Shown here piece after piece: positions 2,733-50,079 of a DNA stretch of 64,000 nucleotides (positions within the stretch are counted from its first letter, which is position 1; every line of letters begins with the position of its first letter). The DNA comes from Eledone cirrhosa (Eukaryota): assembly GCA_964016885.1 (NCBI GenBank), contig OZ024740.1, positions 65,038,001 through 65,102,000 of the forward strand. Reading direction: 5' to 3'. Below the pieces are notes generated by a model that saw only the letters and a program-made list of their open reading frames with translations, did not search any database and was not told the origin of the DNA. The position numbers and the translations under genes were made by a program.

Positions 2733-2876
2733 AGGCCTATGTGGGATAGATGTTATCACATAGTCATTGTTGTTTGACACTGTATTCAGGACTGTGCTTG
2801 CTGCTTATAGTCTTTATAGGCGTTCTTTTAAGTTGTTCAGGTTTTATCTCCACACACTCACACACACACATACATA

Positions 2877-2914
<38 letters not shown>

Positions 2915-3608
2915 TATTGAAGTTTGCTTGAAGCATTGTGGAATAATAAGGTAAATTTCTTTAATTCGTCTTTGGAAGCCTCGACAATGCAAATGGGTAA
3001 ATCTCCGGGTAACAAGATCCGGTGGTGGAGAGAGAGATGTAAGTGGGTGTACGTTGAGATGCGTGGCGTGTATAAGACGTGTAGAGGAATGAAGGAAAGA
3101 GCATAAAAGATAAAATAAAAATAACAACACGAGAGAGAGTTACCTTGGGAGAGATTTAATTGTCCATATATATTTCGGATTCACATCCATCAACTGGGGT
3201 TTTTTCCGGGGTGGGGGAAAGGTTGTCTGTCGGAAAGGTGCGAATCGCGTCCTCCGTTGTTCGTTGTTTTGAATATTTTGAATATCATATTCAAAACAAC
3301 GAACAGCGGAGGACGCATTTCGCACCTTTCCGACAGACAACCTTTCCCCCACCCCGGAAAAAACCCCAGTTGATGGATGTGAATCCGAAATATATAGGGA
3401 CGATTAAATCTCTCCCAAGGTAACTCTATCTCGTGTTGTTATTTTAATTTTATCCTTTATGCTCTTTTCTTCATTCCTCTACACGTCTTATACACACCAC
3501 GCATCTCAACATACACCCACTTACATCTCTCTCTCCCCACCGGATCTTGTTACCCGGAGATTTACCCATTTGCATTGTCGAGACTTCCAAACGACTTAAA
3601 GAAATTTA

Positions 3609-3659
<51 letters not shown>

Positions 3660-3800
3660 TATGTCTGTGTGTGTGAGTGTGTGGAGATAAAACGTGAACA
3701 ACTTAAAAAACGCCTATAAAGACAGTAAGCAGCAAGCACAGTCCTGAATACTGAGTCAAACAACAATGAATATGTGATAACATCTATCCCACATAGGCCT
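2733..3800. repeat. About 1.07-kb imperfect palindrome: PLE-end fold-back (about 2910-3611) inside (TA)n, plus inverted duplication of flank (2733-2880 / 3656-3800)
   Basis: Arms are reverse complements (aggcctatgtgggatag... versus ...ctatcccacataggcct), centre near 3285. Degenerate HHR-like motif ccc CAGTTGA t ggat-gtga-atcc GAAA tata ta ggg at 3364-3399, mirrored at about 3163-3200. Confidence 0.9.
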
Positions 3801-4100: not shown

Positions 4101-7100
4101 TTACAGACACATACTCAGAGTAGGCCCATTCACTCGGGCCATTCCTGCCTCTCTCACCCATCTTTCAACAAAATGCTGGGAAGAGAGCACTTCCCTTTCT
4201 ACCCCGATTTTCCTTTTCAAATGAAATTTGAAAAAGTTAATCAGGGCATCATCGAAGAGGTAAGTGCTCGTCTGCAGCCCTTTCAAACGTGTCCACCATA
4301 ATATCTCTTTCGCCATGGCCACCAGACAGATAAAAACTGCCTGCCCTTCCCGGCTAAACGAAGAGGACGGGGCAATCCTCACGATGGACTCAGCTGATAG
4401 CTGGATCCGTCCCACCGCGACATCAGGTGTTCGACATAAACCCACAAGACAGCGATGCTCGGACACAGGACGAGTGCGGGCAGGACGGTTTCGTCGCCCT
4501 GCGCGCATCTCGGACATGCCCGCTGACAGCACCTCCATGCCTGTAGAGTTTATCCCGAACTGGCAAAGCTCCTCGGTAGCACTGCCAGGCCAGGGATTTC
4601 TGGAAGTTGTCCATAGGCCCCGGCCCGAAAGTTCTTGCGAAGAGGTTGGCTAGTTGATTTTCGTCGACGCCTAGAGTTTCCCCAAGTACGTCGTCGCTCT
4701 TCGCCTCCACTAATCCTCTATAGAACGCCAAGGTGGAGTTTCCACCGATCACATTGCTCAATTGGTCGAGGGTTGTGAGCGCCTGAAGACATTCCAGTTT
4801 CCAAGCGCTCCCTCTCGGTCTTCGCTTGACCCAGGACTGCAGCTCCGTCAAGAAGACGAGCTGGGAAAAGACGTGTCTAGCAAACGGAGACCACACCTGA
4901 TCACCGTCGAGGAAGAGGTGGAGATGTCGTAGCCTGAGCGTGTGTCTGCGTATCATCAGCCACGGCATTCCCAGCCCTCCACGTAGCGGGTTTTGACAGC
5001 AGATGGAACGTCTGACCATCGGAGGGCGTCTCTTCCACAAAAAGCGAAAGAGCAAACGCTCCAGCGCAGTCAGGCGGGGCTTAGGACAAGGTACGACGGT
5101 CAGGTGGTAGGAGATGACGGACGCGATATACGCGTTAGCCACCTCCGCTCGACCTTTCAGGGATAGGTTCCTCTCGGCCGATTTCTAGGTGAGAGAAGCC
5201 ACCCTGCTTGTCACCTCGTCTCAGTTTTTGTCCGTCTGGAGATCCGGACCGAACCAGACCCCGAGCAATTTAACTGGTCCGTCCGTTCAGCGCCCGGCGA
5301 CGTTGTTGGACGGCATGGACCTGTCTCTCTAGGTGCCGAGCTGCAGGCCCACTGACTTTTCCTGGTTGATCATTGCTCCTGTCACCGCTTCGTATTCTCT
5401 TAGTGTAGTGCCGATCGCCTCGATGTGTTTGGCGTTCGAGACCACTACGGCGACATCGTCCGCATATACTGACACAGATCTTCCGCATCCTAGTTCGCGC
5501 TGACCCCCCTCAACGTCTCCAGTTTGTGCAGTAAAGGCTCGAGAGTTAATACGTACAAGAGGGACGAAAGGGGACATCCTTGGCGGACCGAGCGCATGAT
5601 GTTGAACGGTTCCGAAAGGTGACCGTTCACTCTCACCACAGAGCAGATGTCGCTGTGCATGGCAGCGATCCAGCCTCTGAAGACGGGCCCAAAGCCAGCC
5701 GCCCTCAGGACTGCCGCTAGGTAACGATGGTCGACTCTATCGAAAGCTTTCGACTGATCTAAATTTATCAAGGACCCACCCGTGCCAGGTTCCCTAGCTA
5801 CCCTCTCTACGATGAATCGCATGATGTGGAGGTTGTCATAGATGGATCTGTCGGGAATGGCGCATGTCTGCGCCTCTTCCACCAGACCACCAACGACAAG
5901 CGCCAACCTCTTTGGTAGCACCTTGGCCAAAATCTTGAACTCTGTGTTTAGTATAGTTATGGGCCTAAAATTATCTATGTTATCCCCCTTGTTCGGATCC
6001 TTTCTCAGCAGCGCCACAGCTCCTGGGCTCACAGAGCTGGGAATTCTCCCGTTCTGTTGCCAGTTGCAGTAGACGTCCGCCAAGAGGCCTCCGAACAAGT
6101 CTGGCATCTGTATGTAAAGTTCATAGGGCAGACCATCCAAACCAGGCGATTTACCCCTTTTGCAGCTTGTCATTGCCTCCCGTACTTCAGCGGCTGTTAT
6201 CGGCTTTTCGCAACAGTCCGCCTCAGTGGCCGAGAATCGCGGCAGTCCGTCGAGGTAGACACTAAAATCCATCCCTCTATCCGGCCCGCCGCTGCCCCCG
6301 AACAACTGAGCGAAGTGTTGCTGAAAGGCTTCACACATTTGCCCGGGATCGAGTAGCAAGCGCCCGTCGTGGTCCACCAAAGACCGGATCGTGGCTTTGT
6401 TGCCACGACGCGCCTCCGCCACTCGGGCCCATTGAACGGCTTTCGTCCCCTCGTGTCTCAGAGCACGCACCATAGCTCAGACAACGCAGCCTTCGTGCTT
6501 TGCATTGAAGAATTGGTCAAGGGCCAATTTCGCCGCAAGTACGTCGGTCGCGATGCCTTTGCTAAGCGCCTCGTCTAATTTTCTAACTAATTCTCCCTCT
6601 GCTCTATTTTTCTCTATTGCTAAAGCCTTACTAAACCTAATGGACACTATTCTAATTGCTCTTTTCAGAGCAACCACCACTTGTTGTTGAGGATGGCTCC
6701 TGTCAACGCCCGCTTAACTAGTTCGCTAATCCGGTCTCTGTAGGCCTTGCCGCTGGTATGGACGCGTTTAGCTTCCAGTAGCCGGGCCCTCATCTATGAA
6801 GCCAATCTAAGTCAAGCGCACAGATCACGAATTTGTGGTCCGTGTAGCTGACTATAGTGAATTGTGGACAGCCTATGCTAGACCTATCTATTTCTCTACA
6901 AAATACTCTATCTAGATATGATCGGGATGACCCTATGCGATTTGTCCAAGTCCACATTGGCACATTCGGGAAATTCAATCGGTACCTGTCAGACAGTTCA
7001 AAACGCCTGAGCAGGTTGGTGAGGCTCTTGCACCCCCCTCCCCTATCCGCTAATCCCACACAGTCCCAGCGTGTATCTAGGATCCCGTTCCAGTCGCCCA

Positions 7101-7523
7101 CTAACACTAAAGAGCGGGACGTTCCAAGAAAGGTCTCCAGACGCCGGAAGAAATCAGGCCGACCTGCTCCTGTCTGGGCATAGACGGCCACTAGCCTGAA
7201 AGCTTTCCCGTCTCCGCTGGTCATGTCTAGCACCACCAACTTACCCTCTGGATCCAGGAAGATGGCCCGTATGGCGAGATCCAAACCTCTCCGATCCAGG
7301 ACGGCTGGGAGATGCGTACACATCGTAGCCGCCGAAGATCGGTGCGAAGGTCCGTGCTTCGGAGATTCTGGTCTCGCTGATGGCCACTACATCTATGTTT
7401 AGTGACCTGAGGTCGTTGAGCAGGAGGCCCTGCTTCCATAACGACCCCAAGCCACGCGCATTTATGCTGCCTATTCAGAGTGAGGTCATGTTGAAATGGA
7501 GTGGAAAATATGGGAAAGACCAC
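4101..7523 (-). pseudogene. LINE ORF2 (APE endonuclease + RT + C-terminal region), frameshifted with stops
   Basis: EN motifs DVVAISETR, LVGDWN, SYLDRVF, TDHK. RT motifs KSPGLDGLPYE, NFRPITILNTEFKILAK, LDQSKAFDRVDH, VRQGCPLS, YADD. Also GGLGMP. Confidence 0.92.
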
Positions 7524-9203
7524 TTACCTTACTTCTCTTAGAGGAAGGATGGTTTGTCCATCCTTTTCACTGCTTGTGGCCTCTTCCGGAAGGATGTCCT
7601 TATAAATCCTCCTGGAGAGTGTTTGTCGGAAATCTCCGATGTCTTTGCGGAATTTTTGTTTTAGTGTCGTGTACGTTTTCTGGGTGAACCGAGTGATTTG
7701 TATGCGTGGAGGTGGTGTGAACTTTTGGGTTGTTGTGTAGTCTTTTTCTGTGATGCTGGTGTTGTGTTGCATGTATTGTAATAATTGGTTGTTGTTCAAA
7801 TTTAATGCTGTGTAGTGTGTATCGTTTTGGTTGTTTTGTTTTGTTTGCTTTTGTTGTGGGTTTGTTTCTGTTACGCTTTTTGGTGACTTTTGTGGTGTTG
7901 GTGATGGTGGTGTTGGGGTTAATGATGGTGATGGTGTTGGTGTTTGTGGTGATGGGGTTGGTGATGCTGGTGTGGATGGTTGCATATCTGTCCTAACTTT
8001 TTTGTTTGATAATTTATTTGTTTCCCTCTGTATTTTGTTTTTGGAGGGGGAAGGAAGATAATTTTTTCTTTTTTTGTTTCTTTTTTTTTCTTTTATCCTG
8101 ATACCGTTTCCCACTCCTCGTCGTCACAATCTGTCTCCAGTTGCGATAAGCCGGGGAGTAGAAAATCCCCCACAGGCATTGGTTTTGGTTGTGGCGTGGT
8201 GGATGGTGTAGGCGCTGGTGCTAGTTCTGGCGCGTTGGGTGGTGGTGGTGTTGGTTTTGCTACTGTTGCTGGGGTTGTTGCTGCTATAGTTGCTTCTGTT
8301 GTTGCTGCTACAGTTGTTGCTGCCATTTCTGCTGCTAGTGGTGTTGATGGTTGAGTCACTGGGTGGGTAGGAGAGGTGGCCTCAACCTTTTAGCCTGAGG
8401 GTAGAAAGCCCTTAGGTGGATTCCTTCACCACAAACGACACACCTAGGTCTTCTGCCCTCGAAGATTACGGTGAGGTGGCTGCCGTCAGTGAGGTATATT
8501 ACCTCTGGGATCTCCTCACTGCCTTTATGGTCCGCTTGGATCAGGAGCTCCATCCCAGATCCGGACCAGTTCTCTCGCTATTTCAATTATCTTGGTGTTG
8601 GCCTCAATGCCGGCGAGGACGGCAGCCATTAGCCAGGGAATTTCGATGACCGGTGGAAAGTGGGTCACCCTGATCTTCACAAGTCTCTGGCCACAATAGC
8701 TTGGGATGAGTGTGAAGTCGTCACTTCTTAATGGGGCCATGGAGTGTTTTCTGGCCTCCTGTGGTGTTTGAAAGAACACGTCCACGGTTCCATACTTCTG
8801 CCCACGTCTGATGTGGGTTTATTTTTCCCACACATGTCCCAAAGCTTTTGGGATTTGGGACTCGGATGCCCGTTCCACTCGGCGCGATTTTATGTTGATT
8901 GTCCGATAAGACACGGTGCATAGGCGACGTTGCTCCATTTTATTAGGTGGGAGGGGTGGGGGGAAGGCTGACCCTGTACCCATCTTTCTTTACCATTCCT
9001 TTGGCTTCTTCTAATTCCTCCTGAGTTACCTGGATCGCTTCGCACGTTTTTGCTACTCTGGCAAAACTCAGGGTAGTTTTCTTAATTTCATTGTTGCTGT
9101 TGTTGTTATCGTTATTTTTGCTATTGTTAATTTTAGTTTCAGTTGTGGTGGTGGTGGCGTCAGTGGTGTTCGGTGTGGAAGAGTTCATTTTGGTTGAATT
9201 CAT
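7524..9203 (-). pseudogene. LINE ORF1 (gag-like), fragmented
   Basis: ORF pieces with SFARVAK, a degenerate CCHC knuckle (GRRPRCVVCGEGIHLRAFYP), P/T-rich linkers and EWETV..KKR; directly upstream of ORF2. Confidence 0.75.
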
Positions 9204-11593: not shown

Positions 11594-11667
<74 letters not shown>

Positions 11668-12032
11668 AAAGAATAGAGGTGTAACACACGATTTATGATA
11701 TATTGGTAAAAGGAAAAGAAAATGCTGACAAATTGTTCCCAGTGAAAAATAGTTTAATTAGGAATAAGTAAAAATTAGTAATAGTATTGGTTAGTATTCA
11801 GTTTTGGTTTTAAGTTTTACCGGATACGCATTTCTAATGCTTTTCAAAAATAATTTTGAGATAGAGCGCCCGTGATGTTTGCTCTAATCTGATTGGTTTT
11901 GGAAATTCTACCTGTTTTATGTAAAACAAAGTGGCTCCAGATGTATGAAAAAAATTCTTGTGGTCAAAACAATTTTGATTGGTCGGTAGAGGTCATGTGA
12001 ATGATGATACAAATGTGAAAGATGATACAAAA

Positions 12033-13005
12033 TCACAACAAAGCGGAGATATATGAAAAATGGCTTAACTCAACCCCTCTAACTCTCCCCGTAAAATACA
12101 AATAAAGTCCATTCCAAATGAACCCGAACCTCAAAGACCAATTAGGGAAAGAATGGCATTGGAAAAAATGAAGACAGAAATTGATCTTCTTAAATTGAGG
12201 GCCCAGACACATGGGGAAAAAATCAAAACCTTCGATGAAGAGATCCTCCTGGAAATCAACAATAAAACTGAAGGCCCCAAGGTAGAGAAGATCTCTAAAT
12301 TATGGAAAGGGGACTGCAACAGAGAAGAACTGAAATCCTTTCAACTCTGGGAAAAAAGTACCGCTTGTATCCTACACTATGAATCGACATTTCAAACGGA
12401 TTACAGCTCCAATAACCCGTTCATAAAAATAGGAAAACCCATAACCGAACCGCACAACAACTTCGCAAACACCCCACCCACTAACAAAAGAAGAAGGAAG
12501 CACCACACCGAAGATGAACTTCCCAACCATAAGAAGGAACAAAAACCCTAAAAATCATCTCCCCCAGAATGACATTTACAACTTTCCCCCTTCAAGGAGA
12601 CACCATACCAAATCACTCAACTACTACGCGGATGCCTCATCGTCAAACATAGGGAAAAGATACCACCACCATGATAGATGTAACAACTTCCCCGCTTCAA
12701 GGGGACGGCAAGGTAATTTCCATTTTCTCAACTCTCGCTTCCACAATACACAACAAACCCACACCACACGATACAACCAACAACGCAGGCCACCTATAAC
12801 ACCACAATCCAACATGGCACATAGAAACACACACCCATACTCGCAATACAGGAACGCCCCATTCAATCTACAACCACGAACCCGAACCACGTTTTACAAC
12901 AACAAGGAATATAACAAACACAGGAGACCACTTAACATCAGCAGACAACCCCTCTACCCCAACCATTTTTTAGACACAGCACACAGATACAGGCAAACAA
13001 AATAA
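12033..13005 (+). pseudogene. PLE upstream ORF1 (helical/coiled-coil-like N-part, basic N/R/Q-rich C-part), one frameshift
   Basis: KAEIYEKWL..TP..RERMALEKMKTEIDLLKLRA...NNPFIK...NHFLD; clearly homologous to 38488-39349. Confidence 0.75.
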
Positions 13006-15262
13006 CACAAGACAAGGAGGAGAAACCGAGAGTAATAAAAATTATCAATCTAACTAGTGCAGAACCAACACCCAATCTTATCAACTTACTCTCCAAAGGT
13101 CTTAAATTCAAACCGACCCCACGACGTCCTAACTACTATGAAATGAAGGAAGACATCAGAGACTTCTGTAGAAAGTTACGACTCAGTGAAGAACTATTCG
13201 ACCAGTACAATGAGGATGAATCATTAGCCAGAAATAGAAGCAATTACACTCCATCAGAAGGTAGAAATAAAATCCTGGACGAATTCTGTGAACACATCAC
13301 AAACTTCCATTACCAACACTTGCGCATACAAAAACACAAGCGAAACCTCAACAAGAAAGAACGGGAAGAATTAAATAGATTAAAAACCGACAGAACCATT
13401 ACAATTAAAGAGGCTGATAAAGGGAGTACAGTAGTCCTAATGGAGACAGAATTCTATATCAACATAGCGCTCTCCACTTTGGAAAACGAAACATACTACG
13501 AAAAGGCTGAACACTAAAATCAACAGAAAATTATGAGAAACCTAAAACCTCTGATCAACCAATACAAAGAAGGACTCACTAACAAGGAATTCAGCTTCAT
13601 CACAGACTTCACAAGTAAATACAGCCTTTTCTACGGTATCCCTAAAGTACATAAAAGCGAATTAATAAGTAAGGCATGCAAGGAAGCCAAAGACATAGTC
13701 ATCAATGTCCCGTCACCCAATGATCTCAAATTAAGACCTATAATAGCAGGCCCCGCTTGCGAAACCCACCGCCTTAGCAACTTCATTGATACCCTTCTCA
13801 AGCTTTTCTCAAACACATCAAAAGCTGTATAAGGGACGACCTAGATATGCTCAATCACCTCCCTAATATGCCCATTTCTGAACAAACCCTACTAGTGACG
13901 TTCGATGTAGTCAACCTATACTCCAACATCAACCCACAACCTAGGAATAGAAGCTATCCAATTCTGGCTGGATAATTACCACAATGAACTCCCACAACGC
14001 ATCAAAAAGAATTCGTGATAGAGGGACTCAAATTTATCTTGGAGAACAATTACTTCGTTTTCAATAAGAAACCCTAAAGCAGAAATCTGGGACTGCTATG
14101 GGAACGAAAACAGCCCCCACTTATGCCAACCAAGTCATGGGATACCTGGAAATCACCCTCTACACTAAAGTACTAAACACATTTGGAAACACTCTCCACT
14201 TACACATAGAAAGGAACTGGAAGCGATATCTAGATGACTGACTCATCCTTTGGCACGAAAACATCGAGAAACTTAAAGAATTTCACACCCTTATAAATGG
14301 GCTCAACACGAATATTAACTTCACGATGGAATACAGCCATCAACAACTCCCCTTCCTCGACATCCTCATTAAGATCCATAACAAAAAAATAGAAACAGAC
14401 ATATACTACAAGCCCACAGACTCCAAGCAATATCTTCCTTTCAACTCTTGCCACCCTAGACACGTTAAAATTAATATTCCCTACAACTTAGCCAAGAGAA
14501 TCTGTATAATAGTCTCCAATGAAAACACCTTCTACTTACGGCTACAAGAACTAAAGGACACACTCATAGGCAGTGTCTACCCTGCATCACTAATTGACAA
14601 CGGAATCCAACGTGCCCTAAAACTCAGTACCCAGGACCTTAGACACCCTACAGTAAATCAACCGAAACTAAAAGCTCTTCCATACATCTCCACACACAAC
14701 CCCTCAACAATGAGCCCTTTGACACCATCCTCCAGAACATCCCTATGTTGAAAAAGAACCATAGAATGAACCAAATCCTACGTACACACTATATCATAAA
14801 GAGCAAAAGACAATCTAAGTCAATGAAAAACATCCTAACATGCCAAAGTACTGCCAACCACAACAACCAAACCCACAGTAAAAAAATGCGATAGACCCAA
14901 CTGTGGCATATGGATCAACCTAATAGAGGGTTCGGAATTCTATTTCAAAGAAGGACAACGTTTTATAGTAAAACTCAATTTCGCATGCGCATCAGAAAAT
15001 CTAATATATGTATTAACTTGGTAAGGTTGTCGAGACCAAAAACAGCCTCCGCCAACGCATGACTGTCCATAGATCCCAAATTAAAATACGGGAATACAGG
15101 AAAATACCACTGAGTGAACACATTGATACCTGTGCCGCCTAAAATCACCCCAACTTCAGAATCTTTCCCCTCTACAAATTTAAATATAATGCCACCCACA
15201 CCCAGCGCATCAGCAATGAATCTCACTTTATTAACAAATACGGACCCGTCTAAACAATTCCC
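12972..15262 (+). pseudogene. PLE ORF2: RT + CxxxxCxxC finger + GIY-YIG endonuclease, multiple stops and frameshifts
   Basis: LLSKGLKF.PTP, IKEADKG, FYGIPKVHK, LRPIIAG, FDVVNLY, GTAMGT..APTYAN, RYLDD, LPFLD, YKPTD, KKCDRPNCG, NLIY..T. Confidence 0.9.
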
Positions 15263-16248
15263 CCTAAGACGAACCCACAACATACACACGTCAACATACA
15301 TACCTACATCAGCATACATCTCTATCCACATATAAACACAATGACATACGTAAACACACATGTACTATGGTGCAACATAAATATACACAAATTTGCATAT
15401 CTTTTGATGTCTATAGATATAAACGTGTCGACACACACACATACATATACGCACACATGCATTGCACACTGATGGGCACATAGATATTTGTACACAAGTA
15501 TTCCAATACTGCAAGGCCTAATGGATTCCCCTTGCAGTACGTACAATCTGGACACTCACACACCTTGGTATTATGCCAATACTATTTATCATTTAACACC
15601 TTTTATTATTAATGTTTTTGATGTTCTATTGAGGGAATCGTTTTTACTGAAAATATCGAATAATGTACACCATTTTTACCAGTATCACAAAAATACTGGT
15701 CCACCCACACACACACACACATTCTCACACACACACTTGTCTTAATAGGCATTTGAACTGTCAACAGGCTGCGGTTCGCACACACATCCCTGCTGACCAT
15801 TATAACAACAACGAACCTCTTTACTACTACTACACACACACACACACACACATACACGCACACACACACATATTTGTCTTGAAAGTCTTAATTTTCAGTG
15901 ACTTCTCAATCAGCCGAGACAGACCTATTTTTGGCGCAAAATCAATTTTTAACATTCACATGACCTCTACCGACCAATCAAAATTGTTTTGACCACAAAC
16001 ATGTTTTCATACATCTGGAGCCACTTTTTTTTTACATAAAACAGGTAGAATTTCCAAAACTAATCAGATTAGAGCAAACATCACGGGCGCTCTATCAAAA
16101 ATTATTTTTGAAAAGCATTAGAAATACGCAACCGGTAAAACTTAAAACCAAAACTGAATACTAACCAATACTATTACTAATTTTTACTTGATCCTAAATA
16201 AACTATTTTTCACTGGGAACAATTTGTCAGCATTTTCTTTTCCTTTTA

Positions 16249-16299
<51 letters not shown>

Positions 16300-16310
16300 A
16301 TATATATATA

Positions 16311-35245: not shown

Positions 35246-37094
35246 TCAAGAAAACTAGAAAACTATATCTTATAGTTTTGTTTATACCATGAATAAATTT
35301 TATTCGAGGATACAATCGACTATGTGAACCCAATTTTGTGACAGAACCGCAGTATGCGAATCCTGATCGAATTTGAAAGCACTACGTGGAAAGGCATAAT
35401 TAAATAAACTAATGCAGCTCAATTTTCTATCATTTCTGCCACTTCATCGCTTCAATAGAAACGTAGTTGAGAACGGGCAACACTTAAAATGCATTCTCTG
35501 GGGGAGTCAATATCAGATTGTCTTATTTCATAAAGAAGAAAACATTAAAATCACTAATAAAACAATTAGTAACGATTCAGTAATTTTGATTTTCTTTAGG
35601 TGTCTACACACTTCAATGATTGCAATTCAATGAAGATTTGATTTGTTCGAACGAAGAGATGCTGAATCTATAACTATAGAAGTTGATATTATATTGTAAT
35701 AATGGAATTTTGAGACAAGATTTTGTGTTGAAATTTCCCATCTGAATAAATATGGTCCATTTAACTCATAATTCTCGTTTACAGTAATTTTATTGCGATT
35801 CAAAATAGAAGAATATCATGTATCAACACTTCAACGTGGACAGGATTTCATTTTAATGAATTATTTTTCGTTGCTGAATGGTGTGTACTGTGATTTCAGT
35901 AACGTCCGACGAAGCGAGGGTGTGCAAGTAAAACATGGTTTGAAAATATTTGTTTTGTTTCATTTTCCCTTCGTCGCTAATCATTTTAAGAAAAGATATG
36001 GTTGTCACATCAACCAATTTTCCGTAATCTGTTGAATATTGAATGTTCCATTAATCATATAAATCCCTCGAGTAGTTGATGACACCGAATATCGATAGCT
36101 GTAATATGATGGTTTGTCCTTAGCGTCTCAAAGAAACCATGATGCTCGCAATTTAGAAATGTATACCAAATATCTTTGACAGTGATGCTACAGATTGTAG
36201 TGGTTCACAGCAACCTGAGTATTTCGTTAGGTATACAGGTTTCCCCCGGTGTTCGCCGGAGTTATGTTCCTAGAGCATCTGCGAAGAGTGAAAAGCCGTA
36301 AATATTGGACATGATCCATAAACATGTATATTAACGTCAAAATATAATAAATAAAAAGCGGGAGCGTCTTATGCGAAGGGCAAATATGGTATATTTTTAT
36401 TAATAATTTAATAATATATAACAATATACCAAATATGGTATATTGTTATTAATAATTTACTATGTTTCATAGGAATATACCGAGTATCTACAAATGAAAT
36501 GATGTTATTGAAATTCTACGGCTCTAGAAACATTATGTACTGTCCGTTATTGTGACTATGGTGTTTATTTAGAAATTCACCGTGACTGTATAGATGTGGG
36601 ATCAAAGACAATAAATTCATGACTAACCCGCACTGTTTCAGAAGATATCATGGTTTGATATATCGAATGGCTCATATCCTTTTTCTTATATACCTGAGAC
36701 ACGGTAGCATCCAAGATACTTTGAAACTTTCACCTACTATGTAAACTGTTTGGTCGAAAGTGCAGTATGTTTGAGGTTGTTGCATATGACAGCCATATAT
36801 TTGAGTTGCTGGAAAATATTGTTTATAGATCTACATTATGCAGTGCATCACTCCCCTACATTTAGCACATCTGAATAGAACACAGAGAAAATTAAGATCA
36901 CAAGGCACAGTATAGGTGGGTATCATATCGTCATTAATTTATTAACCGATACCAAAGATACAATGTCTCAATAGTATATTTTTGACGCAACACGGCTAAT
37001 GATAAGTATATGTGTATACATGCATGTGTTTTTATATATATATACACACATGTATATCTCTCTCTCTATATATATATATACACACACACATATG

Positions 37095-37165
<71 letters not shown>

Positions 37166-37263
37166 GTGAGGTTTTTTTTTACAAAATGAAAAATAACCGA
37201 GGTGTCCTACACGAGTGGAAGTATAAAGAAAAAGGGATGAAATCGAAAATGCAACTGAAGTCT

Positions 37264-37302
<39 letters not shown>

Positions 37303-37315
37303 TATTTATTTGGTT

Positions 37316-37353
37316 CCTTTACCGGTTTCGCAGTTCTTCTGCTTTTCAAAAGG
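37316..37353 (-). ncRNA. Minimal type I hammerhead, U3-A8 core
   Basis: Reverse complement of cctt TTGAAAA gcag aagaa ctgc GAAA ccgg ta aagg. Confidence 0.8.
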
Positions 37354-37868
37354 TGAGTTGAGATGGAGGGTCTGTGGTTTTTCTCACATCTGGTTGGTCT
37401 CTAAATGTTACTTGATTTATATGGAAAAACTGGCTCGAAAACCAGGTTTTTCGAGAAGTAATTTGATTGGTTTGTCAATAATTATAATAAATTTCGCGCC
37501 AGTTCGCGTTACAATAGTTCTTCAAATAAGAGAGGGGGGGGGGGGTTGTCACAGGTTGTTTTTTCATATATGAGTGTTTGAATTTCTTTTTACTTGAAAA
37601 AATGAGGCTCACGAAGGCTTTTTTTTGGTTGGTTATAAATGAAATTTGGCTGTCACGTGAACAAGTTTTCATTACATTTTTGCGCCCTTATTTGGAAAAC
37701 TATTCTGTAGTCTTTATAGTGAATGTTATGACAATGGAGAGATAGTGGTCAAGGGAAAAGGGATTAGGAGAAATGTTCTGGTTCAGTGAATATGGCCAGC
37801 TGTCAGAGTTCAGGTGTCAGAGTTCAGATTTTCTATTGAGACTGAAGATATGTGTTTATTTGTGTGCT

Positions 37869-37901
<33 letters not shown>

Positions 37902-38157
37902 ATGTGTGTATTGGAAGATGATTCTATTAGTAGAGATGGGGGAGGGAGTTGTGTGTGTGTGTATATGGGTGTTATGTGTGTGTGTGCGAGTATGTTAGAT
38001 AGAGAGAATATATATTTTTTGTGTGTGTGTATATATATGTGTGTAGGAAAGTGGTTCTATTAGTAGAAATGGGGAGGGTGTTGTAGGTGTGGGGGTTTTT
38101 ATGTGTGTGTGTGGGTGTTATGTGTGTGGGAGTATGGTTAGCATGTTAAGATGAAGA

Positions 38158-38195
<38 letters not shown>

Positions 38196-38357
38196 TGTGT
38201 GTGTATGTGTGTGTGTAGGAAAATGATTCCTTTAGTAGGAATATTTTTGAATGAACATATTTTCCTGACTTTTTCGTGTTTGCTGTTGTATTGCCAGTGC
38301 AAACGTATGTTTAAGGTTTATTTAGTTCGGGTTTTTATTTTCTAAAGTAGGTGTTAT

Positions 38358-38490
38358 GATACAATGTCTCAATAGTATATTTTTGACGCAACACGGCTAA
38401 TGATAAGTATATGTGTATACATGCATGTGTTTTTATATATATATACACACATGTATATCTCTCTCTCTATATATATATATACACACACAT
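38358..38490 (+). repeat. Direct copy of upstream flank 36957-37091 captured inside the PLE
   Basis: gatacaatgtctcaatagtatatttttgacgcaacacggctaatgataag...cacacat occurs at both sites. Confidence 0.92.
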
Positions 38491-39349
38491 GGCAAGGCAG
38501 ACATATATGAAAAGTGGCTAACCTCTACACCAATCATCCTCCCAAAAAAACTCCAAATAAAACCCATCCCGAATGAACCAGAAAACCAACAAAGACTTAG
38601 GGAAAAGATGGCATTGGAAAAATTTAAAACAGAAATAGAACTGTTGCGATTAAGAGCCAACTCCAACGAAGAAAAATTCAAGTCACTCGACCAACAGATG
38701 GACACAGAAATCTCAAAGCACTCTGAAGGCCTACTCTACAAAAAAACCCCTAAAACTTTGGAAAGAAAACTGTGAGGATGAAGAACTCACATCCCTCCAG
38801 CGATGGGAAAAAAACGCCACCTGGTTCAACAACTACGAAATGGACTTCAAAAATGAACAACATACAGGTAACCCATTTTTAAAACAAACTAAAACTCACA
38901 CACCACATGCACAACAAATAACAAAAAAAGTAACAAAACGTCCAACATACCCCCAGCAAAACTATAACGATAATCCCAGAAACCATAGACAAAACTATAA
39001 CTCTACTAACAAAAACCAAAGATCCCCGAACACAAGGCAGGACCTGATCCGCAGATCACAACCCACACAAAACCTATTCCAAAACCGTAGACCCCTGCCC
39101 ACACAGAGCCTGTTCCAAAACCATAGATCCCAACCCACACAAAGGAACCAAATCTACAACCCGGACTATCAACAAACCGAACCTCAATACGTCCGAAACT
39201 TCTATACAAGACCACACAACAACAGGGGAAATACCATTAGATATAATAATACCAATGAAAAAACATTCCAGAAAAATCATTTTTTAGACCAAGGCTACAG
39301 GACTGACGACACCCGGTGGCACAAACCGATTTTGAAAAACCGAAAATAA
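38488..39349 (+). pseudogene. PLE upstream ORF1, 5'-truncated, one indel near 38745
   Basis: GKADIYEKWLTSTP...RLREKMALEKFKTEIELLRLRA...GNPFLK...NHFLD. Confidence 0.8.
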
Positions 39350-41586
39350 TTAACATTTCAAATACAAACCTCTCAGCCCAACAAGTAAAAATTCTCTCCA
39401 AAGGTCTGAAATTCACACCAACACCACAATATCCTAACGCCAACGAGATAAATCACGATATCTCACACTTCTGTAGAAAATTACGTGTCACAGAGGAATT
39501 CTTTGACAAGGAGAATAACGACGAATCAATTGTACGGAATAAAAGCAGCTACAACCCAACAAAAGGTAGAAACAGAGTTCTGGACAAATTTTGTGACCAC
39601 ATAGCTACCTTCCCATACCATGAACTACCGCAACCTAAACCCAAACCCAACACAAGTCGAAGGGAATGGGAGATTATCCATGAACTAAAAAACAATCCGG
39701 ACATTGTAATTAAGGAAGCGGACAAGGGAAGTACTGTTGTCATTATGGAGGCTGAAAAATATAAAAATTCTATGTTCTCTCTCTTACAAAATACTAATTA
39801 CTATGAAAGAGTAAAAAACTACCAGCAATCAAAAATAATGACCAAATTAAACACACTGATTTATCGATACCAGGAAGACCTAACTAAAAAGGAACGCGAT
39901 TATTTAACAAATTTTGAATACAAAACCAGCAACCTTTACGGACTTCCGAAGATTCACAAATGTAAAATAATCAACGATGCCTGTAAACAATCCACCTCAG
40001 CCTGCGTGAACACACAATACCCCACAGACCTTAAATTAAGACCAATTGTAGCGGGCCCACAATGTGAAACACACAGATTGAGCAACTTTATAGACATACT
40101 ACTGAAACCAATACTGAAACACATACCAAGCCTTGTAAGAGACGATCTGGACCTCTTAAACCACCTCCCCAAACATGTCAACAACGACACTATTATTGTG
40201 TCTTTCGATGTAGTGAATCTCTACACAACGATCCCACACCAATACGGACTGGAAGCAATAGGATTCTGGCTAGAGAAATATCCCAATGAGATACCTGACA
40301 GAATAGAAAAAAGCTTCATCACCGAGGGATTAAAATTCATCCTACAGAACAACTTTTTTGATTTCGATGGCAATACTTACAAGCAAATATCGGGGACTGC
40401 GATGGGCCACAAAAGCCGCTCCAACTTATGCCAACTTAGTCATGGCATACTTAGAAGTCCAGATATATGAACAGTCCAAATCAAAATACGGATTGAACTT
40501 CCACAAATATTTATCAGAGAATTGGAAACGCTACTTGGATGATTGCCTCATTCTTTGGTCCCACACACTCGACCAACTGAAGGATTTCAAAAACTTAATA
40601 AACGGCATCAATAACCACATCCAATTCACAATGGAATACAGCCAAGATCAACTCCCATTTCTGGACATCTTAATCACAAAAAAAGACACAAATATCGAAA
40701 CTGACATACACTACAAACCAACAGATTCCAAACAATATCTGCTATTCACTCCAACCATCCAAAGCACACGAAGACGAACATTCCTTTTAACCTAGCAAGA
40801 AGAATTTGCACAATTGTCTCCAATTATGAAACGCGAAATAAAAGACTTCAAGAATTAAAGGAAATTCTACTTGAGAGAGAGTACCCACTATTACTAATAA
40901 ATAATGGAATAGAAAGGGCTAAAGCAATAGGCATTGATGAATTACGGAAACAGAAACAAATTCAAGGTACGTCCAATATTCTATCATATATCTCAACACA
41001 CAACCCAAGAAATGCGGAAGCTTACAACACTATTCACAATAACATCCCACTACTAAAACAAAACCCAAGAATGAAAAAAGCCCTTGAAACACACAAAATA
41101 ATCAAAAGCAAAAGACAACCAAAATCACTGAAAACATTACTCACCAATGCCAAATTACCTACCACAAACCCACAACCAAGTATCAAAAAATGTGGTCGCT
41201 CTAATTGTGGAACCTGCACTCACCTCATTGAAGGCAACACGTATACATTTAAATCAGGACAAAATTTTACTGTAAAAAATCACTTCACTTGCTCATCAAA
41301 AAAACTACTTTATGCCATTAAATGTAAAGGATGCAATGAAGATTATATAGGACAAAATAAACTCACACTCAGAAACAGAATGACAGTTCATCGCCAACAA
41401 TTACGAGATCCAACCACGAGACAAATACCACTAAGTGCACATCTAGGCATTTGCGCAAGTAATAAGACACCCACATTCCAAGTCTTCCCATTTTAACTTT
41501 GCGCTAACAATACAACAGGACAAATGCGAATAAATAAGGAAAATATGTTTATTCAAAAATATAGACCAACATTAAATAAGGTTTAA
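39286..41586 (+). pseudogene. PLE ORF2: RT + Cys finger + GIY-YIG, few lesions
   Basis: LSKGLKFTPTP, IKEADKG, LYGLPKIHK, LRPIVAG, FDVVNLYTTIP, GTAMG, APTYAN, RYLDD, LPFLD, KCGRSNCGTC, LLYAIKCKGC..YIGQ..LRNRM..HR, FIQKYRPTLN. Confidence 0.93.
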
Positions 41587-42624
41587 TATACATTATGTCA
41601 ACACCACAATATGACATACACACACACACATAACACCTACTTTAGAAAATAAAAACCCGAACTAAATAAACCTTAAACATACGTTTGCACTGGCAATACA
41701 ACAGCAAACACGAAAAAGTCAGGAAAATATGTTCATTCAAAAATATTCCTACTAAAGGAATCATTTTCCTACACACACACATACACACACACAAAATATA
41801 TATATATATTCTCTTCATCTTAACATGCTAACCATACTCCCACACACATAACACCCACACACACACATAAAAACCCCCACACCTACAACACCCTCCCCAT
41901 TTCTACTAATAGAACCACTTTCCTACACACATATATATATACACACACACAAAAAATATATATTCTCTCTATCTAACATACTCGCACACACACACATAAC
42001 ACCCATATACACACACACACAACTCCCTCCCCCATCTCTACTAATAGAATCATCTTCCAATACACACATACACACACGCACACACACACACACATATACA
42101 CACACACAAGCACACAAATAAACACATATCTTCAGTCTCAATAGAAAATCTGAACTCTGACACCTGAACTCTGACAGCTGACCATATTCACTGAACCAGA
42201 ACATTTCTCCTAATCCCTTTTCCCTTGACCACTATCTCTCCATTGTCATAACATTCACTATAAAGACTACAGAATAGTTTTCCAAATAAGGGCGCAAAAA
42301 TGTAATGAAAACTTGTTCACGTGACAGCCAAATTTCATTTATAACCAACCAAAAAAAAGCCTTCGTGAGCCTCATTTTTTCAAGTAAAAAGAAATTCAAA
42401 CACTCATATATGAAAAAACAACCTGTGACAACCCCCCCCCCCCCTCTCTTATTTGAAGAACTATTGTAACGCGAACTGGCGCGAAATTTATTATAATTAT
42501 TGACAAACCAATCAAATTACTTCTCGAAAAACCTGGTTTTCGAGCCAGTTTTTCCATATAAAACAAGTAACATTTAGAGACCAACCAGATGTGAGAAAAA
42601 CCACAGACCCTCCATCTCAACTCA

Positions 42625-42662
42625 CCTTTTGAAAAGCAGAAGAACTGCGAAACCGGTAAAGG
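42625..42662 (+). ncRNA. Minimal type I hammerhead, U3-A8 core, palindromic stem III (ACCGGU)
   Basis: cctt TTGAAAA gcag aagaa ctgc GAAA ccgg TA aagg. Confidence 0.8.
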
Positions 42663-42675
42663 AACCAAATAAATA

Positions 42676-42710
<35 letters not shown>

Positions 42711-42747
42711 TAAGACTTCAGTTGCATTTTCGATTTCATCCCTTTTT

Positions 42748-42788
<41 letters not shown>

Positions 42789-44199: not shown

Positions 44200-45640
44200 G
44201 CCCTAGTGTACCCCCCCTCCCCGGGTCATTATGGGGTTTGAGGGCGAGGTAAGTCCTACGCAATCTATGTTTACATGCAGTAACCAGTTCATCTTTCTTG
44301 TTTAGGAGTTGGTCCGTCGAAAACAGCATTTGTAAAGTTTCCTCCGAGCATAAATTGCACGGACGGCGTCCTCCCGTGTAAGAGTTGGCTCTGGACAGTA
44401 ATCTCCAAGTGAGATCATAGGTGATTTTGTTGTCCTTGAGGTCTCATATGTGGCCCGAATGTGTAGTGGCGTGACACCGGGCCGGGTTTCGGAAGGTATG
44501 TCTATGTTGGTATAGCCGGGTCTTGAAGTCACATGTGGTTAGTCCTATATAAGCTTTGTTGGAGGTGTCCGTCCTCACGTTGCACTGGTAGATCACGTTA
44601 CGGTGTCTGCATCTATTGTCGAGTGGGCAAATGGATCTATCCGGACAGTTGCACCTCCTGGTCGGCTCTCCACTGCTATTTTGGTTATTTCTTCCATCGG
44701 GGTTGAGTTTTTTGTTGCTAGAAGAGACGATGTTTTGTGCGAAGTTTGGTGTAGTGCTGTAAGAGAGTTTGATGGTATTTTTGTTAATTATGATGTGGTA
44801 GCGGTGTTGTAGTGGGAAGTGTTTTTCAATGAGCCTAAAGAATATTTTCTCGATGGGAGTTGTCACCTCTGCGTTGTGGGGAGGATTGAACCATGTTACA
44901 TTGCGTGAGCGGCGGTGTCTCCTGCTGGTTCCGCTAATGGGACCTGGACAGTAGGATATTTCCTCCCGGAAACCACTCCGCTTGAGGGCCTGGTTGTAAT
45001 AAGGCGCATGTTCATCGAATATCCGCTCATTAGCTGACAAACGGGATATGCGGAGGGAGATGTTTTTGACCAGGTTGTTGGTGATGTTCATAGGATGGTT
45101 TGATCGGCGGTGGATGTAGTGCAGGTTGTCATTAGGTTTCCTGTATGGGTAGTACAGGTCGTTTTCGAGGTCGAGGGTCACGTCCAGGAAGTTTACTCGG
45201 GTCAGGGACGTTTGTAGGGTTATTTTAAATCCCCAGTTGCGGAAGAAGCTGATTAATTGTTTCCGGACCCGATCTGTACTACTGGGGTTGTACCCTTTAA
45301 GGGTAAGGAGCCCATCATCACGGTACAATCCACCACCAAATGCAGGAAACATATCGGTGAGTTTGGCTATTAGGAATAATCCTATAAGATCTGTGACCTC
45401 TGCCGAATCCGTGGCGCCCATGCTGACGTCGAATGGTGAGTCGGGAGCTCTTTTTATCCATTTAGAGTTGTCAAAGAGTAAGACTGTCTTCCTGGCGTGG
45501 AGGATGATTTTTCTTTCCTGGTCGGTGATGGGCACAAGTGTTTCGGCGAAGTCCAAGGCAGCAGTAAGTAGCGGTAAGGTGATTGAAGCATAGTAGCTTT
45601 CTAGGTCGAACTGTATGAATTTAGTGTCTCGTTTATCCTC
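44200..45640 (-). pseudogene. 5'-truncated PLE RT + GIY-YIG (YRDD type), frameshift in the endonuclease
   Basis: FDLESYYASI, MGATDSAEVTDLIG, LYRDD, VNFLD, SNHP, WFNPP, CNC...CPL..RC, NVIYQC, YIGLT..FKTR; homologous to 16938-19013. Confidence 0.92.
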
Positions 45641-47309
45641 CAAACTTCGCACAAAACATCGTCTCCTCTAACAACAAAAAACTCAACCACGATGGAAGAA
45701 ATAACCTGAATAGCAGTGGAGAGCCGACCAGGAGGTGCAACTGTCCGGATAGACCTATTTGCCCACTCGACAATAGATGCAGAGACCGTAATGTGATCTA
45801 CCACTGCAACGTGAAGACAGAAAAGCTTATATAGGACTAACCGCATGTGACTTCAAGACCCGGCTATACCAACATAGACATACCTTCCGAAACCCGGCCC
45901 GGCGTCACGCCACTACACTTTCGGGACACATATGGGACCTCAAGGACAACAACATCACCTATTATCTCACTTGGAGATTACTGTCCAGAGCCAACTCTTA
46001 CACGGGAGGACGCCGTCCGTGCAATTTATGCTCGGAGGAAACTTTACAAATGCTGTTTTCGACGGACCAACTCCTAAACAAGAAAGATGAACTGGTTACT
46101 GCATGTAAACATAGATTGCGTAGGACTTATCTCGCCCTCAAACCCCATAATGACCCGGGGGGGGGGGTAGACTAGGGCTATAACACCCCACTTGCCGATT
46201 TTGCAATGGGTAACCCCTGCTTACCAAGGGAGACGTAAGATCTTCTTTTTATTCTTTTATCGCTTCCTTTATTTCCTTGTTCCCCCATCCCTCCTTAGTC
46301 CTTCTACCCCAGTTCTTCTTCTTTGTCGGCGTCTTTTTCTCGCCCACCCGATGCTGCCCTTTGGCCCCTTGTAGCCTCAGTACCCCCACCCCCTCCCCTA
46401 GTCTATGATAGATTTGGCGGTCTCCGCTTTTTATAGCAGTTGTGTTAGACCTCGGATACTTGCCCCCTTTTCCGACCGCTCCACCTTTTTTTCGTGCCTT
46501 CTATATTTCTTAATGGCACTTATGCCTTAATTTCTCGTTTTAGTATTTCTTTCATCTCCTTTCTTTTGGGCGGGGTGGATTCTGAATTTATTTTTCCGTA
46601 TTCTACCTTTACTTCGTACGAACTTTCATGTAGCTTGTATAAGAACTTTTGTAGCGTGGCGGTACCTTTAGAGTTAGCATTAGTATATTTTTTTCGGGAC
46701 TCAGAATTATTATCTCGTACTAGTTTACTTTTCTGCACTAGGCGGTTGCTGGCCTTGCGCACGGGGTAGAAACCTTTATTATTATTTATTTCGTGGTAGT
46801 TTCTTTAGTATTTTGGCCCCATTTGTTGACCCGTCACCGTATGATTTACGTACTTATACCTCTTAAAAGTGTCCTTTCCTATTCCGTCCCACCTAGTTTA
46901 TTTACTTATTTCGTTATTTCTTTATTTCTTTCTTTATTTCTTTATTTCTTTCTTTATTTATTTATCTAGCCTAACAATAGCTAGAGACTTAGGTCGTAGA
47001 ACTTGCTTATATATTCTTTTTTCTTTACACTTATTCGCTTTTCATCACTCTCAGTATTTTTTCTTTCATATATATTTTTTTACCCCTCATTGTTCTACCT
47101 ACCGTTTCGAATTCCTCCCCCTCCCCCTCCCCAGTATCTTCTTTGACCTCATGCCCAGCTGTAGCCAGCACTACCAACGCATGATTGTGTCTACTCCACC
47201 CTCTCCCCTTTTTCTCCTAATGGCAGGTTTAGCCACCATCTCCCCTACTAATTTGCCATCACAGAATTACTACTAACTTTTGACAATCACTTTGACCATA
47301 TGTGGAATT

Positions 47310-47403
47310 ACCCCTTGAGAAGCTCGGCTATTTAAATACCAGGATAAATTTTCATTTAGTCCAGAATTAGCCGTCGAAACGGCTTCATCTCAGCCGTCGG
47401 GGT
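47310..47403 (+). ncRNA. Type I hammerhead, U3-A8 core, GUC triplet
   Basis: acccc TTGAGAA gct cggcta...tagccg tc GAAA cggct-tcatctc-agccg TC ggggt. Confidence 0.85.
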
Positions 47404-47451
47404 CTTACTGGTTCCTATATATATATATATGTATATATAAAAAGAGTCTAA

Positions 47452-47690
47452 AGTCTGTCTTAAGCCAGAAGGCTCATTTGGCTGGTGCTTATCTCGGTTT
47501 CATGGCGTGAAGCGACCGAGAGTACAAGACTCCCCCTGGACAGGACGCCAGCCCATCGCAGGGTTAAACCTCCAGCTATTGTTTGTACTCTTATTCAGCT
47601 TAGTAAACTGGAGCAACGTGAAATGAAGTGTTTTGCTCAAGAACACAACACGCAACTCAGGGATCGAGCACACGACATTATGATCGTGCC
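47452..47690 (-). mobile_element. tRNA-derived SINE family 2
   Basis: Central gttgtgttcttgagcaaaacacttcatttca is shared with 49680-49810. Confidence 0.75.
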
Positions 47691-47950
47691 TCCACTTATG
47701 TGTATATATATATATATATATATTCTTTTTATTAAGGCTAACTAGTAAGTCGTGTTACTCTCGCGGTTTGCCTGTTAATGACGTTATAAATAAAAAAGGT
47801 CTAAAGATAGCGGAGGGTGTTTATTTTTGTGTGTCTATATAAATATCTTTAAAATCTTTTTATAACTTTCATATCTTGACTTTTAAAATATTGCTTATAT
47901 ATATCCTTGTCTGTCTTTATAGTTGTGTTTGTATATAAATGTATATAAAT

Positions 47951-47997
<47 letters not shown>

Positions 47998-47999
<2 letters not shown>

Positions 48000-49650
48000 A
48001 TGTAAAATTGAACAGGGACAGAACAGAGAGGCATTACAATAAATGTTTATTAAATTCACGCTCAGGAGAGTGGGGGGTAGGTGGGGGACGACGTTTCGGG
48101 CAAAAGCCCTTCTTCAGGTGAGAAGTGTGTGGGAACAGAGTTCAAAAGGTGTGTAGGGGAGTGGTGGAGAGACATATAGCGAAAGGAAACGGTGCGAATG
48201 AAAAATTAACAAATAAAGACAAAAAATATAATAAATAAAAATAAAGCATGATCAAAATACAAGGAATGAGAAAATTTAAAAATAAAGGCATGATCAAAAT
48301 AAACTGAAATTAAAAGGGGGGTAAACAGGTGGTGGCGGGTGGAGTGGGGAGAGGGAGACGGGGTGTCCGAGCGGGGAGGGCTGAATGTGGTGTGTGTGGT
48401 TAGGTGTGTGTGTGTGTGTGTGTGTGTATGTGAAAGTGAGGGTTTGGGGAAGAACGGGGTTGCATGTTCAGGAAGGTGTGTGTGGGGGGTGTTTTTGTGG
48501 GTCGGAGTGTCTGTGCGTGTGTGGATAGGGGGGTGGGGGAGAGAGGAATCAGGAGGCTGAGGGTGTAAATATGTGGTGGGAAGCACGTGTGTGTGTGGTT
48601 TAAGCGTGTTGTGGGTGTGGATGGCGTGTGGATAAAAAAAAATTTTGGGGGTGTGTGTGGGTGAGTTATATAGGTGATGGTGTAAGAGGATGGTTGAAAA
48701 GTTGGTAAGTTCACGGATGTTTGGAGATTTGGTTAGAAGTCAATTTCGCGTGTGGGTAATCCAAGAAGTGGTGGTCGGAAGAGGAGAGATGTGGGGTGCG
48801 CGCGCAACAGGAAGTGGTCAGCAGTGGGAGTGCTGTGGTCAGTTGGTGCTGAGAGGTGGTGGGAAGGGCATAGCAGCAGTCGGGAGGCGAGGATGGGTAG
48901 GTGTGAGAGTTGGAGTGAGGAGGGTGTGTGTGTGTGTGTGTGTGTATTAGTAGGGGTGTTAGTGGGATGAGTGAGTGTGGAGCGGGGAGAGAAGGGTGTG
49001 TGTCGTTCTATGGAGGGAGTGTGGTGTACTGGTGTGTGTGTAGTTTGGTGAAGAGGTGTTAGTGGGTGTTAGTATACGGGAGGTGGGGAGGGGTGGAATG
49101 CAGGTGTGAGTGGGGGTTAGTGGTGGTAGGGTGTGTAGAGTTGGTGGTGTACGAGGGTGTGTGGGTACGTGTGCGTGGGGTTGGGGGGTGTTAGTGATGT
49201 TAGTTGCGTGTGGGGTGGGTGGTGTAAGTGGGTGCGTGTGTGCGTGTGATAAGGAGGGGGGAGGAGGAGAAGAGGGGAGGGAAGGGAGTTAGTATGTTAG
49301 TTGGGGAAGGGTGGTCAGATGAGGGGTGGAGTAGAGGTGTTAGTATTGTTAGTGTGGGGTGGGCGGTGAAAAGGAGGGGTGTGTTAGTGGGGGATAAGTG
49401 TGGGGGAGGGGGGCGGTCGAACGCTAAAGGAATAAGGGTGGGGAGTTCAGGCCGGGGGAGTGTGGGTCTGTAAGATGAAGATAGTGCGTTGTTCGACCGT
49501 AAGGCGATGGGCGGGTGTTCCGTGGCACTGGAGTAGGCCACAGACTGTGAGATGGCGTGCGGAGTGTCCAGGACTACCAAAGTGGCGGGCGATGGGGGAA
49601 CTGCCCCCGAGACGAATATCCCGGAGGTGCTCCGTGACTCGGTCCGCCAG
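47998..49650 (-). mobile_element. 5'-truncated Neptune-type PLE: GIY-YIG C-terminus (about 49440-49650), C/A-rich 3' UTR, HHR core at 48087-48122
   Basis: LADRVTEHLRDIR..SPIARHF..PGH...EQRTIFILQT..P(GLN). Minus strand CTGAAGA a gggc-tttt-gccc GAAA cgtcg tc; 3' strand of stem I not evident. Confidence 0.8.
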
Positions 49651-49679
49651 ATATATATATATATATATGTCTGAAGTCT

Positions 49680-49810
49680 GTCTAATTTTCAGCCGAGTAT
49701 AATGGAGCAACCTGAAATGAAGTGTTTTGCTCAAGAACACAACACGCAATCCTGGAATCGAACTCACGACATTATGATCGTAAGCCCAACACCCTTTCCA
49801 CTTGGCCATA
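49680..49810 (-). mobile_element. SINE family 2 tRNA head and core
   Basis: Minus strand: tggccaagtgg (A box) ...gagttcgattcc (B box) ...gtgttcttgagcaaaacac. Confidence 0.8.
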
Positions 49811-50079
49811 TATATATATATACACATACACACACACACACATATATATATATATATTTATATGTATAGATATGTAAGAGCTGCATATGTGGATTTAGAT
49901 ATATGTATGTGTAGATATGTGCGTCTGTGTATGTATATTTATGTAAATTTGTAATTGTATAATATCTGTATATGTAGATTACATCCACCACTTTATCCTG
50001 AAAATTCGAACAACCTTTTCACTAACTCCCTATATCGCCACCTTCACATTCCTTGCCTGCATCCCACTGACCAGTTAAA

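Follow-up and report, generated by a model that had tools for sequence, protein, structure and literature searches.

A probable programmed -1 ribosomal frameshift between ORF1 and the RT frame in a Neptune-type PLE family of Eledone cirrhosa

Results

The PLE copy at 38489-42754 and its family

The window analysed here is a stretch of 64,000 nucleotides of the Eledone cirrhosa genome (contig OZ024740.1, positions 65,038,001 to 65,102,000 of the forward strand). Positions are counted from its first letter and features lie on the plus strand unless stated otherwise. Papers are given by their PMC numbers. The PLE copy at 38489-42754 shares 98.3% identity with intact sister copies, and its damage consists of a 5' truncation, three single-base indels and two stops. 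What remains of ORF1 (38489..39349) encodes a helical domain and then a low-complexity tail, with one frameshift near 38750, and ends in a TAA at 39347-39349, which is codon 23 counted from the slip site discussed below. ORF2 follows in the -1 frame (39280..41587) and is broken by frameshifts near 40407 and 40749 and by a stop near 41496. It carries the motifs GLKF (39403), DKG (39721) and RT YLDD (40532), a CX4CxxC linker (41191) and GIY-YIG (about 41311-41350), and is followed by the 3' UTR or pseudo-LTR (41588..42754). An inverted copy of the 3' end lies upstream on the minus strand (37222..38358) and is 97.3% identical to 41629-42754, which is a shape typical of PLE insertions. A 132-nt stretch is duplicated identically at 36957-37088 and 38358-38489, of which the second separates the inverted 3' end from the truncated ORF1, and this may perhaps be flank captured via a template switch. 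Elsewhere in the window are a palindromic repeat of 1.1 kb and two blocks of higher GC content with ORFs on the minus strand (2733-3800, 4101-8123 and 44444-49857).

The intact form of the family was taken from sister copies. A search with a 341-nt query gave 1,365 candidates, of which 40 were scored. Six intact copies, which were picked for looking open, have a 400-aa ORF1 (a 409-codon frame) and, in the -1 frame, an ORF2 of 771-775 codons encoding the RT, the CX4CxxC linker and GIY-YIG. The -1 frame is open to the end of the locus in 16 of 29 sister loci, and by a count made by eye about 37 of 150 protein matches fall within a 775-codon frame. The first Met of ORF2 comes only at codon 163, past both GLKF (codon 49) and DKG (codon 155), so that ordinary scanning could not start the RT.

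By its layout and motifs, the copy is a decayed member of a young Neptune-type EN+ PLE family. The RT matches PF00078 with an E-value of 1.3e-6 and 28.7 bits, slightly below the cut-off of 29.6, and has the motifs GLKF, DKG and YLDD. The endonuclease exceeds the cut-off for PF01541 (27.9 bits) and has the CCHH arrangement, with CxxC between both GIY-YIG motifs and two His later. The CX4CxxC linker between RT and EN is found in this family and in family E3. Neptune EN+ PLEs have the same order of RT, CX2-5CxxC linker and GIY-YIG with CCHH, as well as pseudo-LTRs, tandem and inverted insertions and (TA)n flanks (PMC8557442). The present family has the pseudo-LTRs and both kinds of insertion, and loose TA-repeat ends at its 3' end point to (TA)n targets. 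Its long post-linker spacer, judged by eye, resembles the Neptune rows in Fig. S2 of the same paper, unlike that of Nematis. The named relatives of the RT include proteins of Octopus bimaculoides (64%) and of bivalves. There was no hammerhead among 91 Rfam matches (E up to 1) to three sister loci. The family departs from the canonical EN+ PLEs of PMC8557442, which have a single ORF, in having a separate ORF1 of about 400 aa that overlaps an AUG-less RT frame in -1; two ORFs are found in the six intact copies and in relatives.

For ORF1, the only Pfam match was a sub-threshold one to K-box, and a profile search against the PDB gave nothing with an E-value below 0.25. The predicted structure is all-helical and confident (pLDDT 90.6), and a fold search with this model gave zero matches at E-values up to 0.001. 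A search for longer relatives gave no ORF1-RT fusion protein among the 13 matches listed, which is a weak negative.

A second, related element in the window

The window holds a further element, E1 (12039-16310), which is more decayed and has its inverted 3' end at 11618-12003. Its heptamer (12966..12972) is identical to that of the copy at 38489-42754 and is unbroken in 28 of the best 30 loci, and its ORF1 stop, a TAA at 13003..13005, is exactly codon 13 from its slip site. The earlier note on this DNA held that the motif is identical in both elements, and indeed CATTTTTTAGAC occurs on the plus strand of the window twice, at 12964 and 39278, once per element. It also held that the ORF1 sequence around the motif does not align with the other element, at 12.9 kb. 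This stands for the low-complexity tail and fails for the upstream part, where 12039-12357 and 38493-38813 are 67.7% identical over 325 nt. Since upstream ORF1 aligns, the two families are homologous; their RT regions share 65% identity over 1,956 nt. The 3' ends of both families also share a block of 73% identity (11816-11937 and 42542-42660).

The slippery heptamer and its register

The heptamer T_TTT_TTA at 39280..39286 supplies codons 1-2 (Phe-Leu) of the overlap. The sequence aat caT TTT TTA gac is there as had been described, in X_XXY_YYZ register to the ORF1 frame 38654-39349 and within the overlap, open in the sisters, and the ORF1 stop ending at 39349 and the placing of the RT in the -1 frame also proved correct. 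The chance that a T-ending codon, TTT and TTA or TTG would follow each other, estimated from each family's own codon usage, is 0.031 for this family and 0.027 for E1. Over 17 families it ranges from 0.014 to 0.25, although the families are related and four of them offer fewer than 75 codons.

The register was compared across those 17 families, a set which includes E5 (absent from the folding set) and leaves out L184 as a near-copy of L182. Five of the further families came from pattern searches of the genome, one of which demanded an AG while another did not. All 17 representatives have precisely six T followed by A or G, in register, and the last base is G in three of them. The codon before the run of six T is CAT, TAT, GAT, AAT, CCT or CGT and thus stands for six amino acids. 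The -1 frame has a stop within ten codons upstream of the heptamer in 12 of the 17, while in codons 3-12 past the heptamer a stop is found in a single family, represented by a decayed copy, and the other 16 are open. This closure upstream and opening downstream of the -1 frame, at a fixed register, is what a -1 frameshift would be expected to show (PMC7618472).

Scans of metagenome and MAG contigs extended the comparison to 97 foreign loci, 30 of which contain the RT start plus 250 nt upstream. An in-register T_TTT_TT(A/G) inside an open -1 frame was found in all eight loci with a match to the ORF1 profile versus 3 of the 22 others, and two of these three lie on short contigs and have ORF1 tails matching or similar to those of the profile matches. 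The ORF1 profile matches 1,101 protein clusters at 50% identity. Among 161 proteins related to ORF1, 113 have a tail at least 70 residues long, and in 81 of these 113 a Phe-Leu lies 8-40 residues before the C-terminus (shuffles: mean 3.9, maximum 13; upstream control: 2 of 99). Six of 31 relatives lacking this dipeptide have DF, NF, SF, YF or FF at the same distance (p 0.002), which would correspond to alternative heptamers as read from protein only. The suggestion that the motif is selected is borne out by the same heptamer and register across 17 families, and on these sequence comparisons we regard the heptamer as real and selected.

The TGA and the sequence after the heptamer

One in-frame stop, the TGA at 39304..39306, interrupts the -1 frame soon after the heptamer. 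It had been taken as decay, and it is private to this copy. Genome-wide, the 295 copies that match at this codon comprise 293 with Y-H-A, one with CGA and one, the present copy, with TGA; the Y-H-A copies have TCA or CCA in nearly all cases among the matches listed, as do the sisters. The TGA is therefore not fixed in young copies, and the -1 frame is open in sisters. The proposed route from CGA to TGA does not hold: CGA was found in one copy against 293 with Y-H-A, so the TGA did not arise by CpG decay, and in all 29 best sisters the difference lies at 39305, where they have C, and not at 39304. The accg/cggt stem that a restored C would have completed falls with it, as it needs a C at 39304, which is not the state of the family. 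A role of the TGA as a selenocysteine or readthrough codon was rejected, as it occurs in a single copy.

Folding of the region after the heptamer gave a weak predicted hairpin at 39294..39320, 7 nt past the heptamer, with a stability no better than that of shuffles (z of -0.23 and -0.31 with either codon). A stimulatory RNA structure 5-9 nt downstream was not found in this family, where z is about -0.3. Across families no conserved hairpin or pseudoknot was found in the folding of 17, with pseudoknots judged by eye; z falls below -2 against shuffles in two of the 17, and one of these two structures begins 2 nt past the heptamer. Between families, the junctions cannot be aligned. Frameshifting above 1% almost always requires a stimulator, and eukaryotes avoid G at the last heptamer position (PMC7618472). 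The near-constant need for a stimulator together with the lack of a conserved structure counts against a canonical signal. In E3 (L127, L130-L134) a poly-C run of very variable length lies about 35 nt past the heptamer, inside the overlap.

Spacing of the ORF1 stop

The distance from the slip site to the end of ORF1 shows a further regularity. In 82 ORF1 relatives Phe-Leu lies within the final 45 residues. The stop is at codon 13 in 31 of these, with exactly ten codons between it and the slippery pair, and it comes earlier in one and later in 50. At the linker stop rate of 23 per 257 codons, about 50 of the 82 would be expected to stop earlier and 9% at codon 13. Even at a rate of 0.03 and with only 30 independent lineages, the dearth of early stops has a p of about 0.001. 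The ten residues between Phe-Leu and the codon-13 stop are unconserved (10% pairwise identity). At the DNA level the stop is at codon 13 in seven of 17 families, and all three stop codons are used. On a quick tree of ORF1 this state is found in scattered places and needs 16 changes, six of them forced by strong branches, though it is clustered, with fewer changes than in all 500 shuffles.

E1 thus has its stop one ribosome length from the slip site, as have the 31 relatives, in contrast to the family of 38489-42754. There codon 13 of the 0 frame is TGG (39317..39319), the Trp of DTRW, which overlaps a GTG in the -1 frame, and the stop is at codon 23. The family belongs to a branch (support 94/95, read with P0002 left out) with Trp at codon 13, inside which E1 and E4 have a stop there. 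Pro or Gly stands at codon 13 in 15 of 44 longer tails against a background of 18% (p 0.01), a post hoc observation on which we do not rely. A reading of the stops at codons 22-23 as the place of a second ribosome was dropped, as these stops follow from the codons of 'KII' in the RT.

Discussion

Programmed frameshifting and its alternatives

Our reading is that the RT of the 38489-42754 family is expressed by a programmed -1 ribosomal frameshift at U_UUU_UUA, to which we give a probability of roughly 85%. It draws on the two-ORF layout, the -1 overlap, the missing AUG, and a heptamer and register kept across distant families. Active members would then make the RT-endonuclease as a predicted ORF1 fusion of about 1,146 aa through the -1 slip. 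Most ribosomes would presumably end at the ORF1 stop, and the ORF1 protein would exceed the RT.

The same region could be read as a splice junction, with TTTTTTAG as a 3' splice site and the RT made from spliced RNA. It would make a good acceptor, an AG comes right after the T run in 12 of 17 families, conserved introns occur in PLEs (PMC8557442), and a donor-like CAG/GTAAC is present within ORF1 of two families. However, the AG is missing in the other five families, in 25 of 81 proteins the residue after Phe-Leu has a codon that cannot begin with G, and the donor is absent from E1 and in the wrong phase, where it would rejoin ORF1. Splicing also requires neither the codon register nor the exact run length. 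Genomic copies with non-T bases joined to the exon start numbered zero, which is a weak argument as PLEs keep introns, and no GT-AG joint at the site was among the 15 joints listed for four contig sets compared with an intact copy, which is silent on expression. We consider splicing improbable. Under termination and reinitiation, ribosomes would finish ORF1 at its stop and start again at an overlapping NTG or ATA, -1 codon 13. An ATG at this codon in E3, E3b, E4, E5 and E6, in E4 as an ATGA stop-start overlap, fits this, as do the many gene-called relatives that start 22-34 residues ahead of GLKF. The codon is GTG in the 38489-42754 family, though, and ATA in E1 and GTA or CTA in others; an NTG or ATG there follows from the Trp or stop codon of ORF1, and in L178, L179, L182-L186, L188 and L257 no ATG precedes the RT motif. 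Reinitiation also has no need of a -1 frame that is open between the heptamer and codon 13, as it is in 16 of 17 families, and we give this reading a slim chance.

Transcriptional slippage, in which the RNA polymerase adds a seventh U and so fuses the frames, would account for ten genomic copies with seven T, and for the Mytilus gene model P0104, which reads straight through ERF-FRTR. Yet among the first 100 of 308 copies 91 have six T, five are longer by one, three shorter by one and one is substituted; copies with seven T are about as rare as those with five, which makes them ordinary indel noise. As the 17 families never exceed six T and are always in ribosomal register, the chance we allow slippage is very slim. 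P0104, from Mytilus coruscus, runs from the ORF1 tail through FF-R to the RT much like the predicted fusion, and is likely an indel copy. It could also be that Phe-Leu serves the ORF1 tail as a protein motif, with the heptamer and the 12-residue length as mere by-products. Phe-Leu is the commonest dipeptide in ORF1 tails, and a peptide function or exit-tunnel geometry could fix the tail length. This does not explain why the synonymous choices are fixed as well (TTT, TTA or TTG, and a T-ending prior codon across six amino acids) and it leaves the RT with no start, so the chance of it appears negligible.

A possible role of the ORF1 stop

The stimulus of such a slip is less certain than the slip itself. 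Reporters engineered in E. coli show that a ribosome stalled at a UGA raises the -1 slips of the ribosome behind it with no RNA structure involved, best with 8-10 codons between heptad and stop and with a peak at 9 (PMC6815119). In the wider clade, a ribosome held at the ORF1 stop is to us the likeliest slip stimulus, a view suggested by the spacing which we hold with somewhat less than even confidence. A terminating ribosome would act as a roadblock, and a colliding follower would slip -1 on the heptamer. With the leader on a stop at codon 13, a follower whose A site holds UUA would trail by 11 codons, and by 10 after one further step. These two distances would approximate the two states of mouse disomes, one codon apart at 59-60 and 62-63 nt (PMC7397865), and translocation is the step thought to slip (PMC7618472). 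For the whole group, we tentatively propose that a clade of two-ORF EN+ PLEs uses an ORF1 stop ten codons past U_UUU_UUA as its stimulator, and that the 38489-42754 family may have replaced this stop with a slow Trp codon in the same position. Having no codon-13 stop, that family would rely on the bare heptamer, the weak hairpin or the slow Trp codon. The collision model explains the peak at codon 13 and does not explain the near-absence of earlier stops, and the later stops of 50 of the 82 relatives count against it.

Relation to known systems

Comparison with described systems can help to see which parts of this reading have precedents. HIV-1 gag-pol uses the identical heptamer, U_UUU_UUA, with a structural gene placed over an enzyme gene, and differs from the present family in its conserved stem-loop 5-9 nt downstream (PMC7618472). 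The E. coli collision reporters share a heptad one ribosome length before a stop and the lack of an RNA structure, but they are bacterial and artificial and peak at 9 spacer codons, whereas the PLEs are natural and eukaryotic with 10, a value that comes from conservation only, and the arrangement is absent in the 38489-42754 family (PMC6815119). For SARS-CoV-2 a nearby stop was proposed to let the pseudoknot refold (PMC8168617), a role that differs from the one considered here in that no pseudoknot was found in these PLEs. The cases cited in the available text of PMC8310308 are a herpes mutant and the E. coli reporters, and no others. A partial literature survey found no natural stop-collision signal and nothing on a frameshift in EN+ PLEs, and prior mention of either is possible.

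Among PLEs, those marked by a frameshift and a pseudoknot are, we assume, the EN-deficient Athena/Terminon elements. The Fig. 1 legend of PMC8557442 and its preprint set PLE ORF1 apart by these two features. Such elements resemble the present family in having a helical ORF1 joined to a PLE RT via a frameshift, while the latter has a C-terminal endonuclease, genome-wide spread and no pseudoknot. The frameshift mark in that paper may apply to Neptune too. In the available text, PMC6431247 sets single-ORF EN+ elements against two-ORF EN- elements, and PMC3846280 mentions frameshifts as decay only.

If our reading is true, EN+ PLEs would no longer be pictured as single-ORF elements but as carriers of a gag/pol-like gene pair in which ribosomes control how much enzyme is made, and an ORF1 family that lacks a match in Pfam or the PDB is thereby named. 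The fixed stop spacing offers a direct test of whether colliding ribosomes naturally stimulate -1 frameshifting in eukaryotes, and dozens of junctions found in nature, some having the stop at codon 13 and some not, could be used as reporter inserts. A true collision mechanism would be a natural, structure-free and traffic-sensitive recoding signal in animals. As part of this stop-stimulator proposal, which we still doubt somewhat more than we believe, the two-ORF EN+ PLE clade appears large and undescribed.

Other PLEs

Several other PLEs came up in the searches. Esterases have been described in Neptune-like elements (PMC5408684), and the distant PLE at L198:1-975 has an unrelated ORF1 in which motifs like those of SGNH/GDSL esterases were seen by eye, with no Pfam match. 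It has the same heptamer and register, with its stop at codon 14. In another distant PLE (L247:1079-2970) an upstream frame of 630 codons overlaps the RT in -1 at the slippery-type G_GAT_TTT. Animal PLE genes were also found under bacterial MAG or symbiont names (L257, P0036, P0055, P0076, P0112, P0129 and P0130), and these are likely host contamination. Finally, the genome has another abundant PLE family (L100-L102 and L104), whose RT motif, judged by eye, is like that of the Hydra rows in Fig. S1 of PMC8557442.
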